Assembly (NCBI GenBank): GCA_963845565.1
Contig: CAWJSJ010000005.1
Coordinates: 160,001 to 224,000, forward strand
DNA length: 64,000 nucleotides
Direction: 5' to 3'
Source: an uncultured Methylomirabilota bacterium
GTDB taxonomy: Bacteria > Methylomirabilota > Methylomirabilia > Methylomirabilales > 2-02-FULL-66-22
The notes beneath the pieces were generated by a model that was not told the origin of the DNA, ran no database searches, and was given only the letters and a program-made list of their open reading frames with translations. This document shows, piece after piece, positions 35,948-45,398 of this stretch (positions are counted from its first letter, which is position 1; each line of letters begins with the position of its first letter). Made by a program: the position numbers and the translations under genes.

Positions 35948-35994
35948 TTGCCACACGCGTCTCAACAGACTATCATATGCAGACACGTGCATGT
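35948..35994 (+). promoter_or_regulatory. arsR1 promoter and operator
   Basis: TTGCCA-17-TATCAT; inverted repeat ATATGC-N8-GCATGT at 35975-35994. Confidence 0.6.
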
Positions 35995-36007
35995 GTTGAG
36001 GTCGAGG

Positions 36008-36376
36008 ATGAAGGACATTGCTCGCGTCCTGGATATGTTGGCGGACCCGACACGGCTCCGACTGCTGCGGTTGCTGCGTCAGCAGGAACTGTGCGTCTGC
36101 GAGCTTGTGGATACGCTCCGCATGCCGCAGTACAAGATCTCCCGGCACCTGCGCAGTCTCCGCGCCGTCGGCCTCGTCGAGGCCCGGCGGGACGGCCGGT
36201 GGATGCACTACCGTCTGGGGCGCCGTGGCGTGCAGGCTCGCCTGGTGCAGGATCTGCTCGCAGTGTTGTGCGGCCACCTGGACAAGACACCACTCGGCCA
36301 ACGGGACGACTCCAGTCTGCGGCGTCGGTTGGCCGCGGGAAAGGTCGGGCGGTGTCTGACGCGGAGCCGTCCGTGA
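36008..36376 (+). CDS. arsR: ArsR/SmtB metalloregulator
   Basis: [29 protein letters not shown]. Confidence 0.92.
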
Positions 36377-36390
36377 CTCTTGTGGGCAAA

Positions 36391-36412
36391 CATATGCGCT
36401 CTGCGACATATG
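36391..36412 (+). promoter_or_regulatory. Second ArsR1-type operator, before acr3
   Basis: CATATGCGCTCTGCGACATATG inverted repeat with the same spacing as the 35975 box. Confidence 0.55.
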
Positions 36413-36453
36413 ACGCTGGGTACGGGACCGCAACGAATCATAGGAGCGAGCGC

Positions 36454-37536
36454 ATGACTGACGGTGTGGTGAAAAAGCTGTCGTTTCTCGATCGGTATCT
36501 CACGGTCTGGATCTTCCTGGCGATGTTCATTGGAGTCGGACAGGGATACTTCTTCCCAACGAGCACGGCGTGGATCTCCGCCTTTCAGGTGGGGACGACC
36601 TCATTCCCCATCGCGATCGGCCTCATCCTGATGATGTATCCGCCGCTCGCCAAGGTGAAGTATGAGGAGATCGGCCGGGTCTTCAAGGACGTCAGGATCC
36701 TTCTCCTTTCCCTGGTGCAGAACTGGGTGATCGGCCCGATCCTGATGTTCATCCTGGCGATCACGTTTCTGCGGGATTACCCCGAGTACATGGTCGGGCT
36801 GATCATGATCGGCCTGGCCCGCTGCATCGCCATGGTCATCGTCTGGAACGAGCTGGCGCGGGGCGACACGGAGTACTGCGCGGCCTTGGTGGCGTTCAAT
36901 TCCATCTTCCAGGTCTTGTTCTTCTCGGTGTTTGCGTATGTGTTCATCACGGTGCTGCCCCGCTGGTTCGGCCTGCAGGGTACGGTGGTGAACATCTCCA
37001 TCGGGCAGATCGCCGAGAGCGTGTTTATTTACCTGGGGATACCGTTCATCGCCGGGGTCATCACGCGCTTCACCCTCATTCCGCTGAAGGGCAAGGAATG
37101 GTATCAGAAGGTATTCATCCCGCGGATTTCCCCCATCACGCTGATCTCGCTGCTGTTCACCATCGTGGTGATGTTCAGCCTGAAGGGGGAGTACATCGTC
37201 CGCTTGCCCCTGGACGTCCTGCGGATCGCGGTGCCGCTCCTGATCTACTTCGTGGTGATGTTCCTGGTGTCGTTCTACCTGAGCTACCGGCTGGGGGCCG
37301 ATTACCCGAAGAGCGCGTCGCTCTCCTTCACGGCGGCCAGCAACAATTTCGAGCTGGCGATCGCCGTGGCCGTGGCGGTCTTCGGCTTGAACTCCGGAGC
37401 GGCCTTCGCCGCGGTGATCGGCCCGCTGGTGGAGGTCCCGGCGCTGATCGGCCTGGTCAACGTGGCGTTCTGGTTCCAGCGGCGGTATTTCGCCGATGCA
37501 CCGGCGGCGAGGCTACAGCGGTGCCCGGGGGAGTGA
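36454..37536 (+). CDS. acr3: ACR3 family arsenite efflux transporter
   Basis: [54 protein letters not shown]. Confidence 0.96.
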
Positions 37537-37537
37537 C

Positions 37538-37795
37538 ATGGCGGACACGATCATCATATACGGCACCGATACCTGTCCTTACTGCAGCCAGGCGCGAGCG
37601 GCCTATGGGGACAGGGCGGTGTACGTGAACGTTGGCCAACACCCCGAGAAGCTCTCGGAAATGCTGGCTTTGACCGGGGGCAAGAGACATGTGCCAGTGA
37701 TCGTAGAAGGGGGAAAGGTGACGGTTGGCTTCGCAGGAGAGGCCTCTCTGCGCGGTGGCATCCCCCTCTTCGGGGGAACCTGATCCGTCAAATAG
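37538..37795 (+). CDS. Uxx-star glutaredoxin-like selenoprotein (TGA 37781-83 = Sec)
   Basis: CPYC Grx fold, VPVI; ends GGT-TGA-S-V-K-TAG; hairpin 37784-37811 with an AGGTCTG core. Confidence 0.75.
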
Positions 37796-37840
37796 GTCTG
37801 CCGTGGGCGGACCGCGAACCGACGTCAGAAAGGGAATGAC

Positions 37841-38152
37841 ATGATTGAAATCACAGAAACCGCACGGACGGCAATCGAGGGGGTCCTCGGGCAGCACAAA
37901 GGGCGGCCCGCGGTGAGAATCCTTTTGCAACCCGGCTGAGGCGGGCCCAAACTGGGTATGGCTCTGGACGAGCCCCAAGAGAACGATGTGACCCACACTG
38001 ATCACGGTGTCACCTTTGCGATCGAGAAGGATCTGTTTGAGCAAATCAAGCCGGTCCGCGTCGATTTCGTGGAGTCGGCAGACGGATCAGGATTCCACCT
38101 CACCTCGAGCCTGGCGCCAGGCGACGGCTGCGGGAGCTCCTGCGCGTGCTAG
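37841..38152 (+). CDS. HesB/IscA-like selenoprotein (TGA 37937-39 = Sec)
   Basis: MIEITETARTAI...VRILLQPG-U-GGPKLGMALDEP...CGSSCAC; TGA at the conserved G-C-x-G cysteine; RBS AAAGGGA. Confidence 0.88.
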
Positions 38153-38235
38153 TGTCCGGAGAATAGCGGTCGGCCAGGTCGACGGCGGGCGCGTGGCCCC
38201 AGGAGAGGAGTCGAGCGGCAGGAGGGCAGGAGCGC

Positions 38236-38658
38236 ATGGAACCCACGATCAAGGTCTTATTTGTGTGCACCGGAAATTCCGCCCGGAGCCAGATGGCCGA
38301 GGGCTTCGCGAGGCACTTCGGTGGCGAGCAGATCGAGGCGCACAGCGCCGGGGTGGAGCCGAGTCGGCTGAATCCCGTTGCCGTGGCGGTCATGCAGGAG
38401 AAGGGGATCGACATCTCGGGCCACCACTCGAAGGCGTTCGACTGGGACCTGGCTCGACAGATGGACGTGGTGGTGACGGTGTGCGGTCATGCCAACGAGT
38501 CCTGCCCGGTCCTGCCGCCGGAGGTGAAACGCCTCCACTGGCCCCTAGAGGACCCGGCTGCCGCCAAGGGCACGGACACGGAGATCATGGCCACGTTCCG
38601 TCTCGTGCGGGATCAAGTCGAAACCCGGGTCGTGGACTTGCTCCGTACGGTGCGCTAG
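38236..38658 (+). CDS. arsC: Arsenate reductase, LMW-PTP/thioredoxin type
   Basis: VLFVCTGNSARSQMAEG, SAG, TVCGHANESCP, HWPLEDPA. Confidence 0.93.
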   Translation: MEPTIKVLFVCTGNSARSQMAEGFARHFGGEQIEAHSAGVEPSRLNPVAVAVMQEKGIDISGHHSKAFDWDLARQMDVVVTVCGHANESCPVLPPEVKRLHWPLEDPAAAKGTDTEIMATFRLVRDQVETRVVDLLRTVR

Positions 38659-38735
38659 CGCGATCAACTCCCGCGACATCCGTGGGCACGCAATCCGGCG
38701 GACACGCGCGTGACGACTCACAACCGGGGGTGACC

Positions 38736-39026
38736 ATGAAGATCAGTGTCAAGGTCGTCGGACTTTGGAAACTGGTCGAAAAGATGGGGAACAAGGGGTG
38801 CGGAGTGGTGGAGTTTCCCGGGGGAACGGCGAACGATCTCTTTCGACACCTCCTGGCTCACCACGGGTTCGTGTGGGCGGACTTTCCGCTCTTGGAGAAA
38901 TGGGAGGAGAATATCAACCTCTCCATCGTGCATAACGATGACATCTTGTTGAAGGCCGACTATGGCCGAACGCCTCTTGCGGACGGCGACAAGCTGTCGC
39001 TTTACGTTCAGACGGGGTGTTGTTAG
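38736..39026 (+). CDS. MoaD/ThiS ubiquitin-like protein ending in GCC
   Basis: MKISVKVVG, beta-grasp pattern (..IVHN..TPLADGDKLSL..); C-terminus TGCC instead of GG. Confidence 0.7.
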   Translation: MKISVKVVGLWKLVEKMGNKGCGVVEFPGGTANDLFRHLLAHHGFVWADFPLLEKWEENINLSIVHNDDILLKADYGRTPLADGDKLSLYVQTGCC

Positions 39027-39118
39027 GCGGGAGCGGCGGCGATGATGGCTGCGGTTCCGCCGTGGTGCCCCGCGTTGGCGGCGGGACCGATGAGTGTACC
39101 CAATTCCGAGATGCCTCC

Positions 39119-40370
39119 ATGACCGTTCAACCTGAATCTGCAGCGCACGACGACGAGGAGGGACGCGGGCTGCTCCATCCGGCGGTAGTGTCTCGCTGCG
39201 ATCTGAGCCGTGGTGACCAACCTCACATGGTTGTTGGGGCGAACGGCGCGCAACAGCGTCAACCAGGGGACCGCCTGGCGAAGGTTTACGTCGAGCCGAC
39301 GAATCGCTGCAATCTGGAGTGTCGCACGTGCATCCGGCACGGGTGGGACGAGCCGCTCGGCCAGATGGATGAGGCGACCTTCGCCCGGATCACGGATGGG
39401 CTCCGCGCGTTTTCGCCGCCGCCCACGGTATTCTTTGGCGGCTTCGGCGAACCGTTGGCGCATCCGCGCATCGTGGAGATGGTGGCGAAGGCGAAAGCCC
39501 TCGGCGGGCCGGCGGAGCTCATCACCAACGGGACGCTTCTCACCCAGGATGTGTCGCGGCGTTTGATTTCGGCGGGGCTCGATCTGCTCTGGGTCTCCCT
39601 GGACGGCGCCACACCGGAAAGTTACACGGACGTGCGCCTCGGCGCGGCCTTGCCACAGGTCCTGGCCAATCTCGCGGCGTTCCGGGATGCGCGCACGGCC
39701 GCTCCGGATCGGACCGCACCCCAGATCGGCATCGCTTTTGTGATGATGAAGCGAAACGTCGCCGATCTGCCGGCGGTGCTGCGCCTTGGGGACCGTTTGG
39801 GGGCGACCCGATTCATGGTCAGCAACGTGCTGCCGTACACGAAGGCGATGTGCGAGGAGGCGCTCTACCCTCGAGTGCTCACGCGTCGCCTGTACTCTTC
39901 CTCCGACCCTCCCCTCAACTTGTCCGCTCTGGACGGGCGACCAGATTACCTTCGAGTCTCGGCGGGACGTGATGCGCGGAGGCCTGCGCATCAGCCTGAA
40001 CGGCGGCGACCTGGCGGAGGCCAGGAACCGCTGCCCGTTTGTCGAGCGCGGCGCCATGGCGATCGCCTGGGATGGGAACGTTAGCCCGTGCCTACCCCTC
40101 CTGCACAGCCATGTCAGTTATCTGGGGGGACAAGACCGCATATCGCGACGGTACGTGGTCGGCCAGGTGGCGGAGCGCGATCTCCGCGACCTGTGGACCG
40201 CGCCGGAGTATGTGGCGTTTCGCCGGCGCGTCCAAGGATTCGAGTTCTCACCCTGCACCGGGTGCGGGGGCTGCAATCTCTCGGAGGCGAATCAAGAGGA
40301 CTGCTACGACAACCCGTTTCCCACCTGTGGCGGGTGCCTTTGGGCGCAAGGCATGATCCACTGCCCTTAG
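39119..40370 (+). CDS. Radical SAM/SPASM protein, tungsten-oxidoreductase-maturase-like; +1 frameshift at ~39935
   Basis: EPTNRCNLECRTC, GGFGEP, TNG, SLDG; second frame CPF..DGNVSPC..PCTGCGGC..DC..PTCGGCLWAQGMIHCP. Confidence 0.85.
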
Positions 40371-40372
40371 CC

Positions 40373-40492
40373 GGCTGCTCAAAAAGGCCCACCTGCGGCG
40401 TTGGCGCGCTCGGGCGCTCGTTGCGGCGTACCTCCAGTACGCCTCACTCGGCCCATCACTTGCCGCCTTGCATCTGGACTTTTTGAGCAGCC
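40373..40492. repeat. 120-bp MITE/REP-like element
   Basis: Perfect 14-bp terminal inverted repeats GGCTGCTCAAAAAG / CTTTTTGAGCAGCC; partial ends also at ~11513-11531 and ~45359-45378. Confidence 0.75.
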
Positions 40493-40567
40493 TGGGCGGG
40501 AGCCTTGCGAACTGAGCGGCCCCAGGCAAGTTCAATCCATTACACCCCAGATTTCAGGCGGTTGTTC

Positions 40568-40607
40568 TTGACAAGGCGGGATGTGTGCAGTAGATTGCAT
40601 GGTACAA
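40568..40607 (+). promoter_or_regulatory. marR promoter and operator
   Basis: TTGACA-17-TAGATT; palindrome TTGCA-TGG-TACAA at 40595-40607. Confidence 0.7.
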
Positions 40608-40633
40608 GTAGTATGGAGGAGGCGGGTGAGGCA

Positions 40634-41092
40634 ATGATGACACTGGACGAAGGGGCTGAGCGGCTACACCGTTTGACGAAGGAGCTTCTCCGGCGGTACC
40701 AGTTCCGCGACTGGAACCAGGTCTGCTGCTATGGGATCTCTATCAGCCAGAGCCATATCCTGGACGTCCTGGTGGAGGACGGCGACCTCACCATGCAGGC
40801 GCTCGCGCGGCGGATGTTCAAGTCCGTCAGCACCATGACGCGAGTGGCGGGACAACTGGTCCGGAAGGGCTACATCAAACGCCGACAGGACCCCGAGGAC
40901 CGGCGGGTCGTCCACGTGTCCATCACACCGCAGGGCAAGGCCATCATCGCCGCGATTCAGCGGGACATGATCGAGACACAGAAGGCCGTCCTCCAGACCG
41001 TGCCGGCCGACGAATGGGCAGGGGCTTTCAAGGTGCTCGAGGCCCTGTCCCGAGGCGCGCGACGGTGGCAGGAGACGTGCTGCAAGGTGTGA
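40634..41092 (+). CDS. MarR family regulator with two vicinal Cys pairs
   Basis: wHTH (STMTRVAGQLVRKGYIKR..DPEDRR); VCCYG and ETCCKV. Confidence 0.9.
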   Translation: MMTLDEGAERLHRLTKELLRRYQFRDWNQVCCYGISISQSHILDVLVEDGDLTMQALARRMFKSVSTMTRVAGQLVRKGYIKRRQDPEDRRVVHVSITPQGKAIIAAIQRDMIETQKAVLQTVPADEWAGAFKVLEALSRGARRWQETCCKV

Positions 41093-41108
41093 TTTGGTTT
41101 GCACATAT

Positions 41109-41125
41109 GGTTGTATACTGCAACC
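41109..41125 (+). promoter_or_regulatory. Second MarR-type operator, overlapping a TATACT -10
   Basis: GGTTGTATACTGCAACC, the same TTGYA-N3-TRCAA pattern as at 40595. Confidence 0.6.
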
Positions 41126-41150
41126 GTCGTGATACTCAAAGGGAGGCGCC

Positions 41151-41438
41151 ATGCTCAAGCCAAAGCAGGACCAGTTGGCAAACGAATTTTACCAGGCCGC
41201 CTTTGCCGATGGTGAGGTGGACGCGAAGACCAAGATCCTGATCGGGACCGCCGTCTCGATGACGCTGGGGTGCTACCCCTGAATGCGGTATTACCTTGGC
41301 GTGGCCAAGGAGCAAGGAATCTCGGAGGGGGCGATTCGGGAGGCGATGGCCGTCGCGATGGCGGTGAACAGCGGACGTGTCCGCATGCAGGCGCGTGAGG
41401 CGCTCAAGGGCTTGCTGGAGCCGCTGGCTTCAGCGTGA
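41151..41438 (+). CDS. AhpD/CMD-like selenoprotein, CxxU motif (TGA 41280-82 = Sec)
   Basis: MLKPKQDQLANEFYQAAFADGEVDAKTKILIGTAVSMTLGCYP-U-MRYYLGVAKEQGISEGAIREAMAVAMAVNSG...; GGGAGG RBS; hairpin 11 nt after the TGA. Confidence 0.88.
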
Positions 41439-41453
41439 TGCGAGGAGAATGAC

Positions 41454-42923
41454 ATGAGTGCGAAAGAGTTCAGCCAGGCGGAGATCAAAGACGCGGTGAA
41501 GTCCCGGTATGCGAAAGCCATCCAGGGCCCTTCTTCCTGCTGTGGCCCATCAGCCACCCCGGCGGGGGCCCCGTCGAGCTCCTGCTGTGGACCGATCACG
41601 ATCGAGCAGAAGGGGGGCATGGTCAAGATTGCCGGCTACGATAAAGCCGACTTGAGCCGGCTGCCGGCCGACGCCGTCCAGAACTCCTTCGGGTGCGGAA
41701 CGCCCCTGGCGTTCGCGGGAGTCCAAGAAGGCCAGACGGTCCTCGACATCGGATCGGGCGCAGGCATTGATTGCTTCATCGCCGCGGAAAAAGTGGGGCC
41801 GACCGGCAAAGTGATCGGCCTGGACATGACGCCCGAGATGATCGAGCGCGCCCGCCAGAACGCCAAGGACGCCGGCCTCACCAACGTGGAGTTCCGCTTT
41901 GGCGAGGCGGAGAAGATGCCGGTCGACGATGCCTCCGTGGACTGGGTGATCTCGAACTGCGTGATCAACCTGAGTCCCGACAAGCCGGCGGTCTTCGGCG
42001 AGATCGGAAGGATCCTGCGCCCCGGCGGCCGGATCTCCATCTCCGACATCGTGGCGCAAGACCTCCCGAAGGCGGTCCGGGAGAGTCGCGACGCCTGGAC
42101 CGGATGCCTGGCCGGGGCGATCAGCGAAGAGGCTTATGTCCAGGGGCTTGAGAAGGCTGGATTACGCGACGTGCGCGTCACGTCGCGCATTGTGTATGAC
42201 GCGAGTCAACTCAAGGGCTTGTTTGGCAGCTCCTGCTGCGGGGCGGGAGAAGGGCAAGACGTGGCGGCCCTGGCGGACGCCGCGGCCGGGAAGATCTGGA
42301 GCGCGCGGTTCGAGGGGGTCAAGGCGCAACCGACGTCAGTGGTCGCCGGGACAACCATCGAGCCGGCCACGAAAGGCGACCTTCCCATGCTCGAAGCACT
42401 TCTGGTGGAGGCCGGTCTCCCCACAGATGTTGCCCCGCATCTGGCCGACTTCCTGGTGGCCCGACATCACCGAAAGGTTGTGGGGTGCGGGGGTATGGAG
42501 ATCCAGGGCACAGACGCGCTGTTTCGCTCGCTGGCGGTCAGTTCCGCCTATCGAGGGGTCGGCATCGGCCGACGGCTTTACGAAGCGCTCGTCGAAAAGG
42601 CTCGAGGAAAGGGCATCCACAGAGCGTACCTGCTGACAACCACGGTTGCTTCCTTGGCAGAGTCGTGGGGATTCCAGCGCATTGCGCGGGACCAGGTGCC
42701 TGAGGCGATCCGCGACACCACGCAGTTCCGTGGCGCATGCTGCGCCTCGGCGGTTTCCATGTGGAAGGAACTGGACAGTCAGCCTAGCGAAGTGCTGCTC
42801 TTGCTCCTGAACGTGACCGGGCGGTCCGGTCCGGACCGAAGAACGCAAGGTATCCCAGGTCCTGCGGGTTCGCCAACGGGACTTCGAACGTGCGGTGAGG
42901 AACTGCTGCAAGGGAATGGGTGA
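41454..42923 (+). CDS. arsM: Arsenite S-adenosylmethyltransferase fused to an ArsN2-like GNAT; the true end is probably ~42810 (..KCCSCS*) after a +1 shift at ~42786
   Basis: SCC repeats, SFGCGTP, VLDIGSGAGID, SNCVINL, WTGCLAGA; GNAT: LVEAGLP, LFRSLAV..YRGVGIG, AYLLTTT, QFRGACCASA. Confidence 0.9.
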   Translation: MSAKEFSQAEIKDAVKSRYAKAIQGPSSCCGPSATPAGAPSSSCCGPITIEQKGGMVKIAGYDKADLSRLPADAVQNSFGCGTPLAFAGVQEGQTVLDIGSGAGIDCFIAAEKVGPTGKVIGLDMTPEMIERARQNAKDAGLTNVEFRFGEAEKMPVDDASVDWVISNCVINLSPDKPAVFGEIGRILRPGGRISISDIVAQDLPKAVRESRDAWTGCLAGAISEEAYVQGLEKAGLRDVRVTSRIVYDASQLKGLFGSSCCGAGEGQDVAALADAAAGKIWSARFEGVKAQPTSVVAGTTIEPATKGDLPMLEALLVEAGLPTDVAPHLADFLVARHHRKVVGCGGMEIQGTDALFRSLAVSSAYRGVGIGRRLYEALVEKARGKGIHRAYLLTTTVASLAESWGFQRIARDQVPEAIRDTTQFRGACCASAVSMWKELDSQPSEVLLLLLNVTGRSGPDRRTQGIPGPAGSPTGLRTCGEELLQGNG

Positions 42924-42938
42924 AGACGCAGTTCGCGC

Positions 42939-42985
42939 TTGACTGGGTTCGGAGTGGGGTATACTATATGAGCATATAGTCATAA
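42939..42985 (+). promoter_or_regulatory. arsR2 promoter and operator
   Basis: TTGACT-17-TACTAT; ATATGAG-N6-GTCATAA at 42966-42985. Confidence 0.65.
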
Positions 42986-42997
42986 GGGGGAGGTGTT

Positions 42998-43312
42998 GTG
43001 GCAGACGATCGATTGCGGCAACTGAAAGCAGATCTGCTCAAGGCGCTCGGGCAGCCGACCCGACTGAAGATCCTGGAACTGCTCGTCGATGGGGAGCGGT
43101 GTGTCTGCGAGATCTTCCCGGCGATTCAGGGGGAGCAGTCGAATACCTCGAAGCACCTAAGTTTCCTGCGAAATCACGGCATCGTGATTTCGGAACGGCG
43201 GGGGATGCGAGTGTTCTATCGTCTGGCGGATAAACGAATCGCCCGACTACTGGAGGATGTGGAAGCGTGCGTGCGGGGAGGCCTCCAGGCGCAGGCGAGT
43301 CTGGTGGCCTGA
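42998..43312 (+). CDS. arsR: Second ArsR/SmtB regulator
   Basis: KALGQPTRLKIL, GERCVCEI, SKHL; GGGAGG RBS. Confidence 0.92.
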   Translation: MADDRLRQLKADLLKALGQPTRLKILELLVDGERCVCEIFPAIQGEQSNTSKHLSFLRNHGIVISERRGMRVFYRLADKRIARLLEDVEACVRGGLQAQASLVA

Positions 43313-43329
43313 TTTTTTTTGAGTTAAGC

Positions 43330-43349
43330 ATATGAGTGCATGCTCATTT
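43330..43349 (+). promoter_or_regulatory. Second ArsR2-type operator, before the permease
   Basis: ATATGAG-TGCATG-CTCATTT, matching the 42966 box. Confidence 0.6.
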
Positions 43350-43396
43350 ATTCCTATCGCCTCGATTCTCCGATGGCGAGGGAAGGGGGAATACTC

Positions 43397-44530
43397 ATGG
43401 CCGGTGTGGAGGCGAAGTGCAATTGCCGGATGGACCTGCCGGAAGACGAACCCGAACGGGTCGCAGCCAAGGGGAATCGCAGCGTGGGGCGACAGGCCGC
43501 GATCCTTGGAGCCGCCGTGGTGGTCTGGTGGGTCATCTACGGGCAACTGGCCCCCTTGGCCGAGTGGGCCACCTATGGACCGCTCGGCCTCGAGCGGGGA
43601 AGCCACCTGGCAGACGCCGTGGAATTCTTCCTCTACGACACACCCAAGGTGCTCATGCTGTTGACTCTGGTGGTCTTCGGCGTGGGCGTGATCCGCTCCT
43701 TCTTCACCGCAGAGCGGACCCGCCGCATTCTGGCTGGGAAGCGCGAATCAGTCGGCAATGTCCTGGCTGCGCTCCTCGGGATCGTGACTCCGTTCTGCTC
43801 CTGTTCTGCCGTGCCGCTCTTCATCGGATTCGTCACGGCGGGCGTGCCGCTGGGCGTGACTTTCTCCTTTCTGATCTCGGCGCCCATGATCAACGAGATC
43901 GCCCTGGTGCTTCTCTACGGTCTCTTCGGGTGGAAGGTGGCAGCCATCTATCTCGGGACCGGCCTCGTCATCGCCATCCTGTCCGGGTGGGTGATCGGCC
44001 GGTTGAAGATGGAGCCGCACGTTGAGGCGTGGGTGTACAAGACAACGGCGGGTGTCAGCGGCGCGGAGGAAGAACTGGATTGGTCTGGCCGCATTCATGC
44101 GGGGCTGGACGCCGTGCGGGACATCGTGGGGAGGGTGTGGGTTTACGTCGTGCTGGGAATCGCCGTGGGGGCGGGGATTCACGGCTACGTCCCGGAGAAC
44201 TTCATGGCATCCATCATGGGGAAGGGGGCCTGGTGGTCGGTCCCGCTGGCGGTGCTGATCGGGATCCCCATGTACTCGAATGCCGCCGGAATCATCCCCG
44301 TGGTCCAGGCGCTATTGGGGAAAGGGGCGGCGCTGGGGACCGTTCTGGCATTCATGATGGCGGTGATCGGGCTGTCCTTACCCGAGACCATCATCTTGCG
44401 AAAGGTCCTGAAGCCCCGTCTTATCGCCACGTTCATCGCGGTGGTTGGAGCGGGGATCCTGCTCGTCGGGTACCTTTTTAACCTGTTGCCACTTCAAGAG
44501 ATCGTGACCACCGGTCGGGCGATCTCGTAA
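43397..44530 (+). CDS. arsP: ArsP-family (DUF318) permease
   Basis: FFLYDTPK, TPFCSCSAVP, SFLISAPMINE, IHGYVP, GIPMYSN, LSLPE. Confidence 0.9.
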   Translation: MAGVEAKCNCRMDLPEDEPERVAAKGNRSVGRQAAILGAAVVVWWVIYGQLAPLAEWATYGPLGLERGSHLADAVEFFLYDTPKVLMLLTLVVFGVGVIRSFFTAERTRRILAGKRESVGNVLAALLGIVTPFCSCSAVPLFIGFVTAGVPLGVTFSFLISAPMINEIALVLLYGLFGWKVAAIYLGTGLVIAILSGWVIGRLKMEPHVEAWVYKTTAGVSGAEEELDWSGRIHAGLDAVRDIVGRVWVYVVLGIAVGAGIHGYVPENFMASIMGKGAWWSVPLAVLIGIPMYSNAAGIIPVVQALLGKGAALGTVLAFMMAVIGLSLPETIILRKVLKPRLIATFIAVVGAGILLVGYLFNLLPLQEIVTTGRAIS

Positions 44531-44592
44531 TCCGTCGGGAGCGGGGGACGGAGCCGTCCCGCCTGCCGCACACGACTCAAAAGGAGCGACAC

Positions 44593-44829
44593 ATGAAGAA
44601 GATCGCGGTGTATGGACCTGGTTGCATGAAGTGCAAGAAGGCCGAGGAGAATGTTCGTCAGGTACTGGCGGAAACGGGGATCCAGGCGACGGTGGAGCAT
44701 GTGACGGAGATGCAGGCCATCGTGGCCGCCGGCGTGATGTCCACCCCGGCGGTGGCCATTGACGGCGTGATCAAGCTGTCGGGTCGTGTTCCTACGACCA
44801 CCGAAATCCGGCAATGGATTTCGGCGTAA
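44593..44829 (+). CDS. Small thioredoxin-fold redox protein (MTH895-like)
   Basis: YGPGCMKC, GVMSTPAVAIDG..GRVP; AAGGAG RBS. Confidence 0.9.
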   Translation: MKKIAVYGPGCMKCKKAEENVRQVLAETGIQATVEHVTEMQAIVAAGVMSTPAVAIDGVIKLSGRVPTTTEIRQWISA

Positions 44830-44883
44830 CGCAACCGGCGTGCCCGGATTCTCCCGGGCCGGAGTGTGCCAAGTCTCTCTGTA

Positions 44884-44921
44884 ACGCAGAACCGGAGCCC
44901 ATTCGGGCTCCGGTTCTGCGT
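44884..44921. terminator. Hairpin between convergent genes
   Basis: Perfect 17-bp stem ACGCAGAACCGGAGCCC-ATTC-GGGCTCCGGTTCTGCGT. Confidence 0.6.
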
Positions 44922-44953
44922 CGGCTGTCTGTCGTAGCTTCCGTGACTCCAGG

Positions 44954-45181
44954 TTACCCGGCCAGCTTCGCCTGGAACTTTCCCGCCGCCTGGATCGCGG
45001 CCACGATCTGGTCCGGGGAGGGGGCCCCACCCTCGACGGTCACGCGCGCTTCCTTCTTGATCCGATCCGCCGCCGCACCCTTCACGCCTGCAAGCCTTTC
45101 CAAGGCTTGTTTCACTTCTCGCTCGCAGCCGCCTCAGGTCATGCCGGTGACGGAGAATACCAACTCCTTGGTCTCAGCCAT
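44954..45181 (-). CDS. Heavy-metal-associated (CopZ/MerP-like) selenoprotein, UxxC motif (TGA at 45134-36)
   Basis: MAETKELVFSVTGMT-U-GGCEREVKQALERLAGVKGAAADRIKKEARVTVEGGAPSPDQIVAAIQAAGKFQAKLAG*; GMTCxxC motif with the first Cys as TGA; AAGGAGG RBS. Confidence 0.88.
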
Positions 45182-45398
45182 TGCATCCTCCTTGTGTGAA
45201 GGCCGTGTGCCCGAACCCGACGAGATACTAACGCGGCTGCCCCCGGTGGGGGAAGCGGATTCTTCCCCGGAAAGAACAAGAGGGAAGGGGGTGTTCCCCT
45301 TCCCTCTCTGCCAACAAGATCCTGCATGCCAGACAGCCGAATACCCCCTTCTCGACCAGGCCGCTCAAAAAGGTCCATTGGGCCTTTTCACTGGCCTG

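Follow-up and report, generated by a model that had tools for sequence, protein, structure and literature searches.

The window analysed here, a 64,000-nucleotide stretch of contig CAWJSJ010000005.1 from an uncultured Methylomirabilota bacterium, carries at positions 35948-45181 an arsenic-resistance (ars) island of 13 plus-strand genes, in the order arsR1, acr3, grxU, hesBU, arsC, ubl, rSAM, marR, ahpDU, arsM-arsN2, arsR2, arsP and trx, together with one minus-strand gene, hmaU, for an HMA protein (Table 1). An earlier note on this DNA had reported ars genes here along with four small open reading frames (ORFs) containing an in-frame TGA; profiles and coordinates confirmed both, and every gene it named was found, the four ORFs being grxU, hesBU, ahpDU and hmaU. 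Two entries needed amending: what had been written as 'arsM(GNAT)' is an ArsM whose GNAT part is ArsN2, in a fusion scoring above both NCBIfam cut-offs, and the island additionally holds ubl and a radical S-adenosylmethionine (SAM)/SPASM gene. The island is best explained as a mosaic in which each of three units would have its own regulator and the selenoprotein accessories are genuine, and not as the single selenium-based arsenic module that had been suggested; its parts have different histories, and hmaU lies outside the three units. As a set of known parts in a mosaic, it is less surprising than first thought. The new part appears to be grxU, an ars-linked long-arm variant of the UXX-star glutaredoxin-like (Grx) selenoproteins, the rest resembling known parts, and the ars-linked long-arm Grx would seem, from the comparisons below, a well-supported and testable lead.

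In-frame UGA codons and their probable selenocysteine decoding

The TGAs of hesBU, ahpDU and hmaU had been placed on a Cys conserved in each family, and Cys was indeed seen at these sites: TGC in the hmaU of one relative (G015), CxxC in AhpD homologs and, by eye, GGCSG in this genome's own IscA paralog. The fourth TGA, described as ending a glutaredoxin as GGT-U-xxx, was found in the form GGT-U-SVK-stop. Sequencing error as the origin of the TGAs was rejected, since independent contigs and relatives keep them. An independent contig over 37540-38213 (X7 record 25) showed no differences at the Grx and HesB TGAs, and metagenome contig L204 keeps the TGA in Grx, HesB and AhpD. Among the contigs listed, none of the same species extends over the HMA codon.

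Conservation was then assessed family by family. For Grx, a TGA after the arm was present in all 148 homologs parsed (from 158 loci); among the other 10 loci, eight have a stop at that place by eye and two are fragments. Val is found two codons after the TGA in 141 of 149, spread over all four Val codons. A hairpin with a G-starting triloop, resembling a selenocysteine insertion sequence (SECIS), follows 17-20 nt 3′ of the TGA; the 101 distinct hairpins compared have 606 stem cells, of which 552 pair, against 466 ± 6 (maximum 486) when the arms were shuffled, a figure somewhat inflated by anchoring on the best of four offsets, and T-A/C-G swaps were seen at several pairs. For HesB, the 40 homologs parsed (53 loci with a match) had 39 TGA and one TTA; the hairpin is weak (−6.9 kcal/mol), and a GGCTC/GAGCC-type stem recurs in most of these homologs. 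The 12 genus relatives with AhpD had 11 TGA and one TAA, and a stem of 6-7 bp was present in every one of them. The TAA (L046:233-478, genome G001) replaces the TGA with the hairpin kept, and represents either a recent inactivation or a sequence error. For HMA, TGA and a 5-8 bp stem occur in 12 of 13 close relatives, the remaining one being G015, in which the hairpin is gone. When a hairpin filter was applied to 2054 ordinary TGA stops, 11 passed at the strict and 125 at the loose setting; Grx and AhpD pass the strict filter, HMA the loose one, and HesB narrowly neither, its hairpin being conserved nonetheless. Against the three clear hairpins noted earlier, the count here is four conserved ones, that of HesB being weak. 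These comparisons make selenocysteine (Sec) decoding of the four UGAs very likely.

The genome contains selA, selD (itself with a TGA) and tRNA-Sec (selC), which the earlier note had proposed to look for along with selB; the latter is frameshifted as assembled and intact in near-identical records (see below). A strict genome scan yielded ∼14 other plausible Sec genes, with presumptive names given by eye from their motifs. With ∼19 Sec candidates in 5.36 Mb (the 14 by-eye candidates outside the island, one more, and the four island genes), the Poisson probability of four in 9.2 kb is ∼5 × 10–8, or ∼3 × 10–5 genome-wide, values to be read in the light of a rough census and of the tendency of selenoprotein genes to cluster anyway. 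Elsewhere in the genome, a second ArsM-like methyltransferase gene (G000 C2:869184-869920), outside any ars cluster seen, has an in-frame TGA (WSD-U-IAG) and a hairpin, as do each of two adjacent genes that look YeeE/YedE-like by eye (G000 C2:2494387-2494809). Such Sec genes are truncated or dropped by gene finders. In databases, the Grx is mostly represented by versions of 81 residues, and HesB mostly by the 64-residue half that follows the UGA. In two database homologs (P0078 and P0110) TGA has been translated as Trp, leaving both Sec sites of the long-arm Grx visible.

Regulation, distribution and origin of the island

Three promoter-like sites were found, one upstream of each regulator gene, and each regulator gene is flanked by operator candidates, with one palindrome before it and a second just after it, ahead of the first structural gene. 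Through these predicted paired operators, ArsR1 would control acr3-grxU-hesBU-arsC-ubl-rSAM, a MarR(ars)-like repressor would control ahpDU-arsM/arsN2, and ArsR2 would control arsP-trx. Genome-wide, the ArsR1 pattern occurs only at the two island sites, to which it was fitted; the ArsR2 motif ATGAG-N6-STCAT occurs six times; and the MarR pattern TTGYA-N3-TRCAA, searched for in 17 genus loci, is matched with at most one mismatch in 15 of them ahead of marR and in 16 of them behind it. The proposal that three Sec genes are under ArsR/MarR control agrees with the position of grxU, hesBU and ahpDU behind operator candidates, although in two separate units. None of the three operator patterns was found near hmaU. 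Its inclusion in an ars transcript was rejected on this ground and because it lies on the opposite strand and shares a hairpin with trx.

The adjacent Cys pair of MarR is kept in all genus and second-genus loci compared, and it is by Cys pattern and context that the protein resembles the MarR(ars) subfamily (bioRxiv 10.1101/2021.08.12.456183), with which it shares this pair, a C-terminal Cys and an ars context. In the part of that preprint consulted, the known subfamily governs arsV and arsM is unmentioned, whereas the island repressor is predicted to govern ahpDU-arsM/arsN2.

The nearest relative, G014, has the same gene order without grxU, hesBU and ubl, and a similar island in G007 likewise lacks these three genes. 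In the order (66 genomes, including the unpublished G031 and G041), grxU-hesBU was present in the island of no other genome examined; a HesB above the NF038090 cut-off and a CPYC long-arm Grx were each seen only in this genome. The canonical UXX-star family occurs in 60 of the 66, and this genome has a separate copy of it on contig C3. Locus L160 has grxU, hesBU and a distant ahpD-U alongside acr3. The third-codon-position GC content of grxU and hesBU (0.72) is below that of acr3 and arsC (0.85-0.89), yet arsR2 has 0.70, so that this is weak evidence of transfer. From the distribution, by which donor and direction were also judged, grxU-hesBU look imported: their source would be an ars cluster of the Syntrophales type, and they would have been inserted so as to separate acr3 from arsC.

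The unit marR-ahpDU-arsM/arsN2, by contrast in history, would be of genus level. Of 20 genus relatives, 16 have marR, with a full ahpD in 12, a 5′ remnant in two and none in two, and in a second genus marR-arsM/arsN2 lacks ahpD in all four genomes examined; ahpDU thus appears dispensable in relatives. One genus member (G017, 95% complete) has no selB above the cut-off and only a remnant of ahpD, and keeps the HMA TGA. Present in 12 of the 20 genus members compared, and close to ars genes in 4 of the 10 relatives for which a wide range was inspected, hmaU may well be a general soft-metal chaperone that is merely a neighbour of the ars units. None of the other genomes examined had all four Sec genes, and the full form was seen only within its own species-level group. 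The synteny of ars and Sec genes that the earlier note had proposed to check was accordingly not found, and one conserved four-selenoprotein module was rejected, the gene set not being kept together.

The long-arm glutaredoxin GrxU and its possible roles

GrxU passes NF041114, the model of UXX-star family 1 ('distant Grx-like protein 1', with UxxT and two Sec), and like that family ends in U-x-x(-x)-stop. The match stops at residue 68 and is followed by a 14-residue arm, in which the consensus SLRGG[IV]P[LI]FGGT precedes the tail U. The tail, U-S-V-K-stop, is one residue longer than UXX-stop, a form found exactly in 46 of 146 homologs. The active site across homologs is UPxC (102), CPxC (47) or UPxA (6), most having a second TGA there; GrxU itself has CPYC (Cys13) and hence a single Sec. 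Residue 13 is always U or C and residue 16 is Cys in 149 of 155 homologs and Ala in the other 6, and this tolerance of Ala at 16 with an invariable U/C at 13 fits a residue-13/tail pair. The arm, the U/C-P-x-C site in place of UxxT, the one Sec here and a near-obligate ars linkage suggest a variant of UXX-star family 1 and not a canonical member, although NCBI already labels some long-arm homologs 'distant Grx-like protein 1'. Named long-arm homologs are mostly from Syntrophales, Smithella and Syntrophorhabdus. An AlphaFold model with a predicted local distance difference test score of 71, for which the alignment contained just 27 sequences, all of the CPxC type, showed a Grx core; arm residues 65-76 were of low confidence and the arm is probably flexible. 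A Foldseek search with the model gave no match at E ≤ 0.001.

The association of Grx with ars genes, on which the earlier note had drawn, turned out to be strong across many genomes. With loci found by Grx patterns alone, acr3, arsC, arsP or arsM was within 1.5 kb of a long-arm Grx in 57 of 63 genome loci, and an ars gene lay within ∼7 kb in all 44 loci with full flanks (15 and 34 of 78 loci, respectively, had been dropped for short flanks or no match). In contrast, no ars gene was near any of the canonical UXX-star controls, neither the 30 best-scoring in the order (one from the unpublished G031) nor the best 30 of 106 in the phylum of G251. Of 77 genome loci, 19 have acr3 as the next gene upstream of the long-arm Grx and 11 have it as the next gene downstream. 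These loci are clusters of the arsR-arsP-trx-TlpA-CcdA-acr3 type. No description of an ars-linked long-arm Grx was found in the literature searched, which excluded Haft and Tolstoy 2025 (mSystems), a paper in which UXX-star and the ArsM fusions are defined and which may describe it.

All four island Sec proteins resemble catalogued selenoprotein families. HesBU, above the cut-off of NF038090 (IscA/HesB selenoproteins, HesB-like, UxGP), has the motif UGGP and differs from the usual members in its place behind grxU in an ars unit. AhpDU has a CMD domain with CxxU (PF02627), falls below the NF041047 cut-off, and matches the AhpD part (model residues 269-343) of the ArsM/AhpD fusion NF041537, adjoining arsM directly; there are, however, two genes here, with AhpD first and a Cys-type ArsM fused to ArsN2, and at 69.8 and 179.9 bits against a cut-off of 510 they do not form a single-chain Sec-ArsM. 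HmaU shares with NF041115 and CopZ-like chaperones the HMA domain and has U at the first metal ligand, but with UxxC instead of UxxU and 54.1 bits against a cut-off of 95. In the part of a 2026 review (PMC13188914) consulted, HesB-like, CMD-like CxxU, UXX-star family 1, NF041115 and ArsM/AhpD fusion proteins are listed, a part in metal(loid) resistance, of unsettled nature, is ascribed to selenoproteins of the transport and UXX-star types, the UXX-star Sec residues having no assigned role, and Haft and Tolstoy 2025 are cited for UXX-star family 2 and ArsM fusions; the part of its Table 1 covered has a UxxC P-type ATPase and no row for a stand-alone UxxC HMA. Redox accessories proposed to serve ArsC occur in the ars operons of Castillo and Saier 2010 (PMC2963123), and the Syntrophales-type loci of the long-arm Grx are of that type, although selenoprotein, glutaredoxin and HesB gave no hits in the text available and the island lacks CcdA and TlpA. 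The SAO and Tso multi-selenoprotein operons likewise bring a number of selenoprotein genes together in surroundings related to metal(loid)s; as far as seen in the sources, those are conserved gene sets and the island is a mosaic, the SAO preprint (10.1101/2022.07.06.499078) dealing with a different system. In what was seen of a further preprint (10.1101/2022.10.17.512643), ArsE is mentioned and selenoproteins are not. The claim that the operon type had not been described consequently holds only in part, given the NF041537 fusions, the catalogued UXX-star proteins and the 2010 ars operons with small redox accessories.

A three-Cys ArsC of the low-molecular-weight protein tyrosine phosphatase (LMW-PTPase) fold needs a dithiol reductant, the cysteines of ArsM need re-reduction, AhpD proteins reduce disulfides of their partners, and As(III) takes three soft ligands. 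Neither this genome nor five others (draft genomes) yielded a glutathione synthetase (PF02955), and thioredoxin reductase is present. In a glutathione-free cell, the Sec proteins could then act as redox relays of the thiol/selenol kind, with thioredoxin reductase to recharge them. The arm of GrxU would bring its selenol round to the active site at residue 13, in the part that glutathione plays for an ordinary glutaredoxin, and the relay would re-reduce ArsC or release As(III) held by the thiols of proteins, so that Acr3 can export it; AhpDU, with its CxxU, would re-reduce the active-site cysteines of ArsM, as a split form of the ArsM/AhpD fusions. Such accessories would improve arsenic handling without being required for it. 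This selenol relay, with the arm's Sec replacing glutathione, is the reading towards which we lean, because of the failure to find glutathione synthetase, the thioredoxin reductase and the thiol chemistry just given. More tentatively, the long-arm UXX-star Grx may be a dedicated and so far unrecognised ars protein of glutathione-free anaerobes. Its tethered C-terminal selenol would take the place of glutathione and, together with residues 13 and 16, make up an S/Se triad able to remove As(III)/MAs(III) from thiols and deliver it to Acr3/ArsP; if true, the supply of Se would set a direct limit on As efflux and methylation by syntrophs of sediments and by NC10 bacteria. The mobility and methylation of arsenic in wetlands and sediments are shaped by the anaerobes living there, and grxU, which accompanies arsenic-export genes in many anaerobes, may help these to handle arsenic without glutathione. 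An ars-tied subfamily would link Se availability to bacterial arsenic resistance, and would give the UXX-star motif a concrete job, testable with small soluble proteins.

Several observations weigh against the selenol relay. The tail U of Grx has no Cys counterpart in any homolog seen, and the model of GrxU gives no position for the tail. ArsC and ArsM might need no reductant other than the Cys-type small thioredoxin of the island. An acr3 gene lies within 1.5 kb of the Grx in 40 of 63 loci and an arsC gene in 7, so that ArsC reduction fits less well than efflux support. The Syntrophales-type genomes are kin, and the linkage counts overstate independence accordingly. In another phylum, that of G251, just 3 of the 12 loci examined widely have ars genes in the vicinity of a close AhpD-U homolog, one of them being arsM-ahpDU-acr3; ArsM-AhpD fusions occur there too. 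The state of selB, given below, belongs with these points.

That acr3 is the commonest neighbour of the long-arm Grx, that C16 is so widely kept, unlike in the canonical UxxT family, and that UXX-star Sec residues may be metal ligands (PMC13188914, in the part consulted) would also suit a GrxU acting mainly as an As(III)/MAs(III) chaperone or trap, in which residue 13 (C/U), C16 and U82 form a three-ligand site like that of ArsR/ArsD and pass the metalloid to Acr3/ArsP. This is rather unlikely in view of the homologs with Ala at 16, of a predicted fold that is an ordinary glutaredoxin core, of the Trx, TlpA-like and CcdA-like genes of ars loci, which suggest a redox chain, and of As-Se bonds that may be too tight for a hand-off. 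If the Sec genes were instead general oxidative or metal-stress passengers of As-inducible stress islands, with no specific ars partner, the frequent location of hmaU and AhpD-U homologs elsewhere would be expected (one AhpD-U follows hgcAB), as would the repeated loss of ahpDU where marR-arsM/arsN2 persists, and the presence of HesB near just 9 of the 44 full-flank Grx loci. However, every long-arm Grx locus with full flanks had an ars gene, a MarR operator candidate stands immediately before ahpDU, and ArsM/AhpD fusions exist, all of which leaves this explanation improbable. The AhpD-U homolog mentioned (L385:6860-8374, G508) is a close one, and directly follows the mercury-methylation genes hgcA-hgcB.

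By far the least probable explanation is that the UGAs are undecoded in this strain, selB being truly broken and the four genes silent relics. It draws on three single-base insertions within ∼300 bp of selB (C4:5490-7400) relative to several relatives, and on the scarcity of other breaks: in 66 ORF comparisons selB was the only one attributable to this genome (five other multi-frame rows were judged by eye to be shadow frames or reference breaks), so that the assembly is not generally error-rich. Against it, a full-length 636-aa SelB in the database differs by ∼two residues from the selB pieces outside the junctions, and in its cluster of 21 members 9 of the 15 listed are full length; selD and the ∼14 other TGA genes are otherwise intact, and at least one similar one-base error occurs elsewhere in the window. 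Because a near-identical intact SelB exists, the three insertions are probably assembly errors. A selB match above the cut-off was obtained in 17 of 21 genus genomes, and the closest named SelB homologs are labelled NC10/Methylomirabilales. The gene is near the contig start, ∼2.4 kb from tRNA-Sec (G000 C4:5490-9871).

Remaining genes and features

Table 1. Features of the ars island in the window, with the evidence for each (profile scores in bits, followed by the cut-off)
Feature	Position	Strand	Evidence
Sigma-70-like promoter and first ArsR1 operator candidate	35948..35995; operator CATATG-N10-CATRTG 35974-35995	+	Motif fitted to two island sites
arsR1, ArsR/SmtB repressor, ELCVC motif	36008..36376	+	NF033788, 95 vs 55; Cys positions
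Second ArsR1 operator candidate, before acr3	36391..36412	+	
acr3, arsenite efflux transporter	36454..37536	+	TIGR00832, 463.9 vs 282.8
grxU, putative long-arm UXX-star family-1 glutaredoxin-like selenoprotein, CPYC and GGT-U-SVK	37538..37795; TGA 37781-37783	+	NF041114, 92 vs 72
grxU hairpin (SECIS-like; 8 bp, loop GTG), 19 nt 3′ of the TGA	37795..37813	+	Covariation in 101 distinct homolog hairpins
hesBU, putative IscA/HesB-family selenoprotein, G-U-GGP	37841..38152; TGA 37937-37939; hairpin 37960-37974	+	NF038090, 94.2 vs 85
arsC, LMW-PTPase-fold arsenate reductase, C11/C83/C90	38236..38658	+	TIGR02691, 168.6, slightly below 174.3
ubl, ubiquitin-like (ThiS/MoaD-like) protein ending G-C-C	38736..39026	+	Atlas lead PF02597, high score
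rSAM, radical SAM/SPASM protein, start uncertain	39119..40370	+	Closest TIGR04317, below cut-off
Promoter and first MarR operator candidate, TTGYA-N3-TRCAA	40568..40607; operator 40595-40607	+	
marR, MarR(ars)-like repressor, C31-C32 and C-terminal C149-C150	40634..41092	+	PF01047; Cys pattern
Second MarR operator candidate, immediately before ahpDU	41111..41123	+	
ahpDU, putative CMD/AhpD-like selenoprotein, CxxU	41151..41438; TGA 41280-41282; hairpin 41294-41310	+	PF02627, 52.6 vs 23
arsM-arsN2 fusion, Cys-type ArsM	41454..42923	+	NF008823, 303 vs 263; NF040501, 130.9 vs 125
Promoter, arsR2 and paired operator candidates ATGAG-N6-STCAT	42939..43347; arsR2 42998-43312; operators 42968-42983, 43332-43347	+	
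arsP-family permease	43397..44530	+	PF03773, 256.9 vs 32.3
trx, MTH895/ArsE-family small thioredoxin, CxxC, no Sec	44593..44829	+	TIGR00412, 96.1 vs 62
17-bp perfect inverted repeat separating the convergent genes trx and hmaU, which probably share it as a terminator	44884..44921	.	
hmaU, putative stand-alone HMA (CopZ-like) selenoprotein, UxxC, MT-U-GGC	44954..45181; TGA 45136-45134; hairpin 45109-45091	-	PF00403, 49 vs 24.8

An extra G near 39935 in the radical SAM gene is probably an assembly error, because the base is absent in the L204 and X15 contigs; in L204 the gene is an open frame of 427 codons. Under ArsR1, this gene may encode an unrecognised ars-associated enzyme. Its TIGR04317-like homologs were seen near 13 of the 44 full-flank long-arm Grx loci. 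From a comparison of its tail, the true end of arsM-arsN2 is probably near 42810, if one base has been misassembled. The ubl gene has six representatives at 50% clustering, of which four end GCC and two end early; a hidden fifth Sec gene, or the Cys form of a Sec-Sec family, was not supported here, full-length relatives ending GCC. One representative has an N-terminal stretch resembling CMD by eye, and other MoaD-like genes recur in Syntrophales-type ars loci.

An Rfam search gave nothing at E ≤ 0.1. Contigs of run X15, from diverged strains, cover parts of the island with no depth in the Grx bin, and contigs cannot show expression. A short intergenic repeat at window positions 40370-40500, with a copy near 45379, had very high contig depth in all four runs, and another copy of it is present in the matching region of G014.

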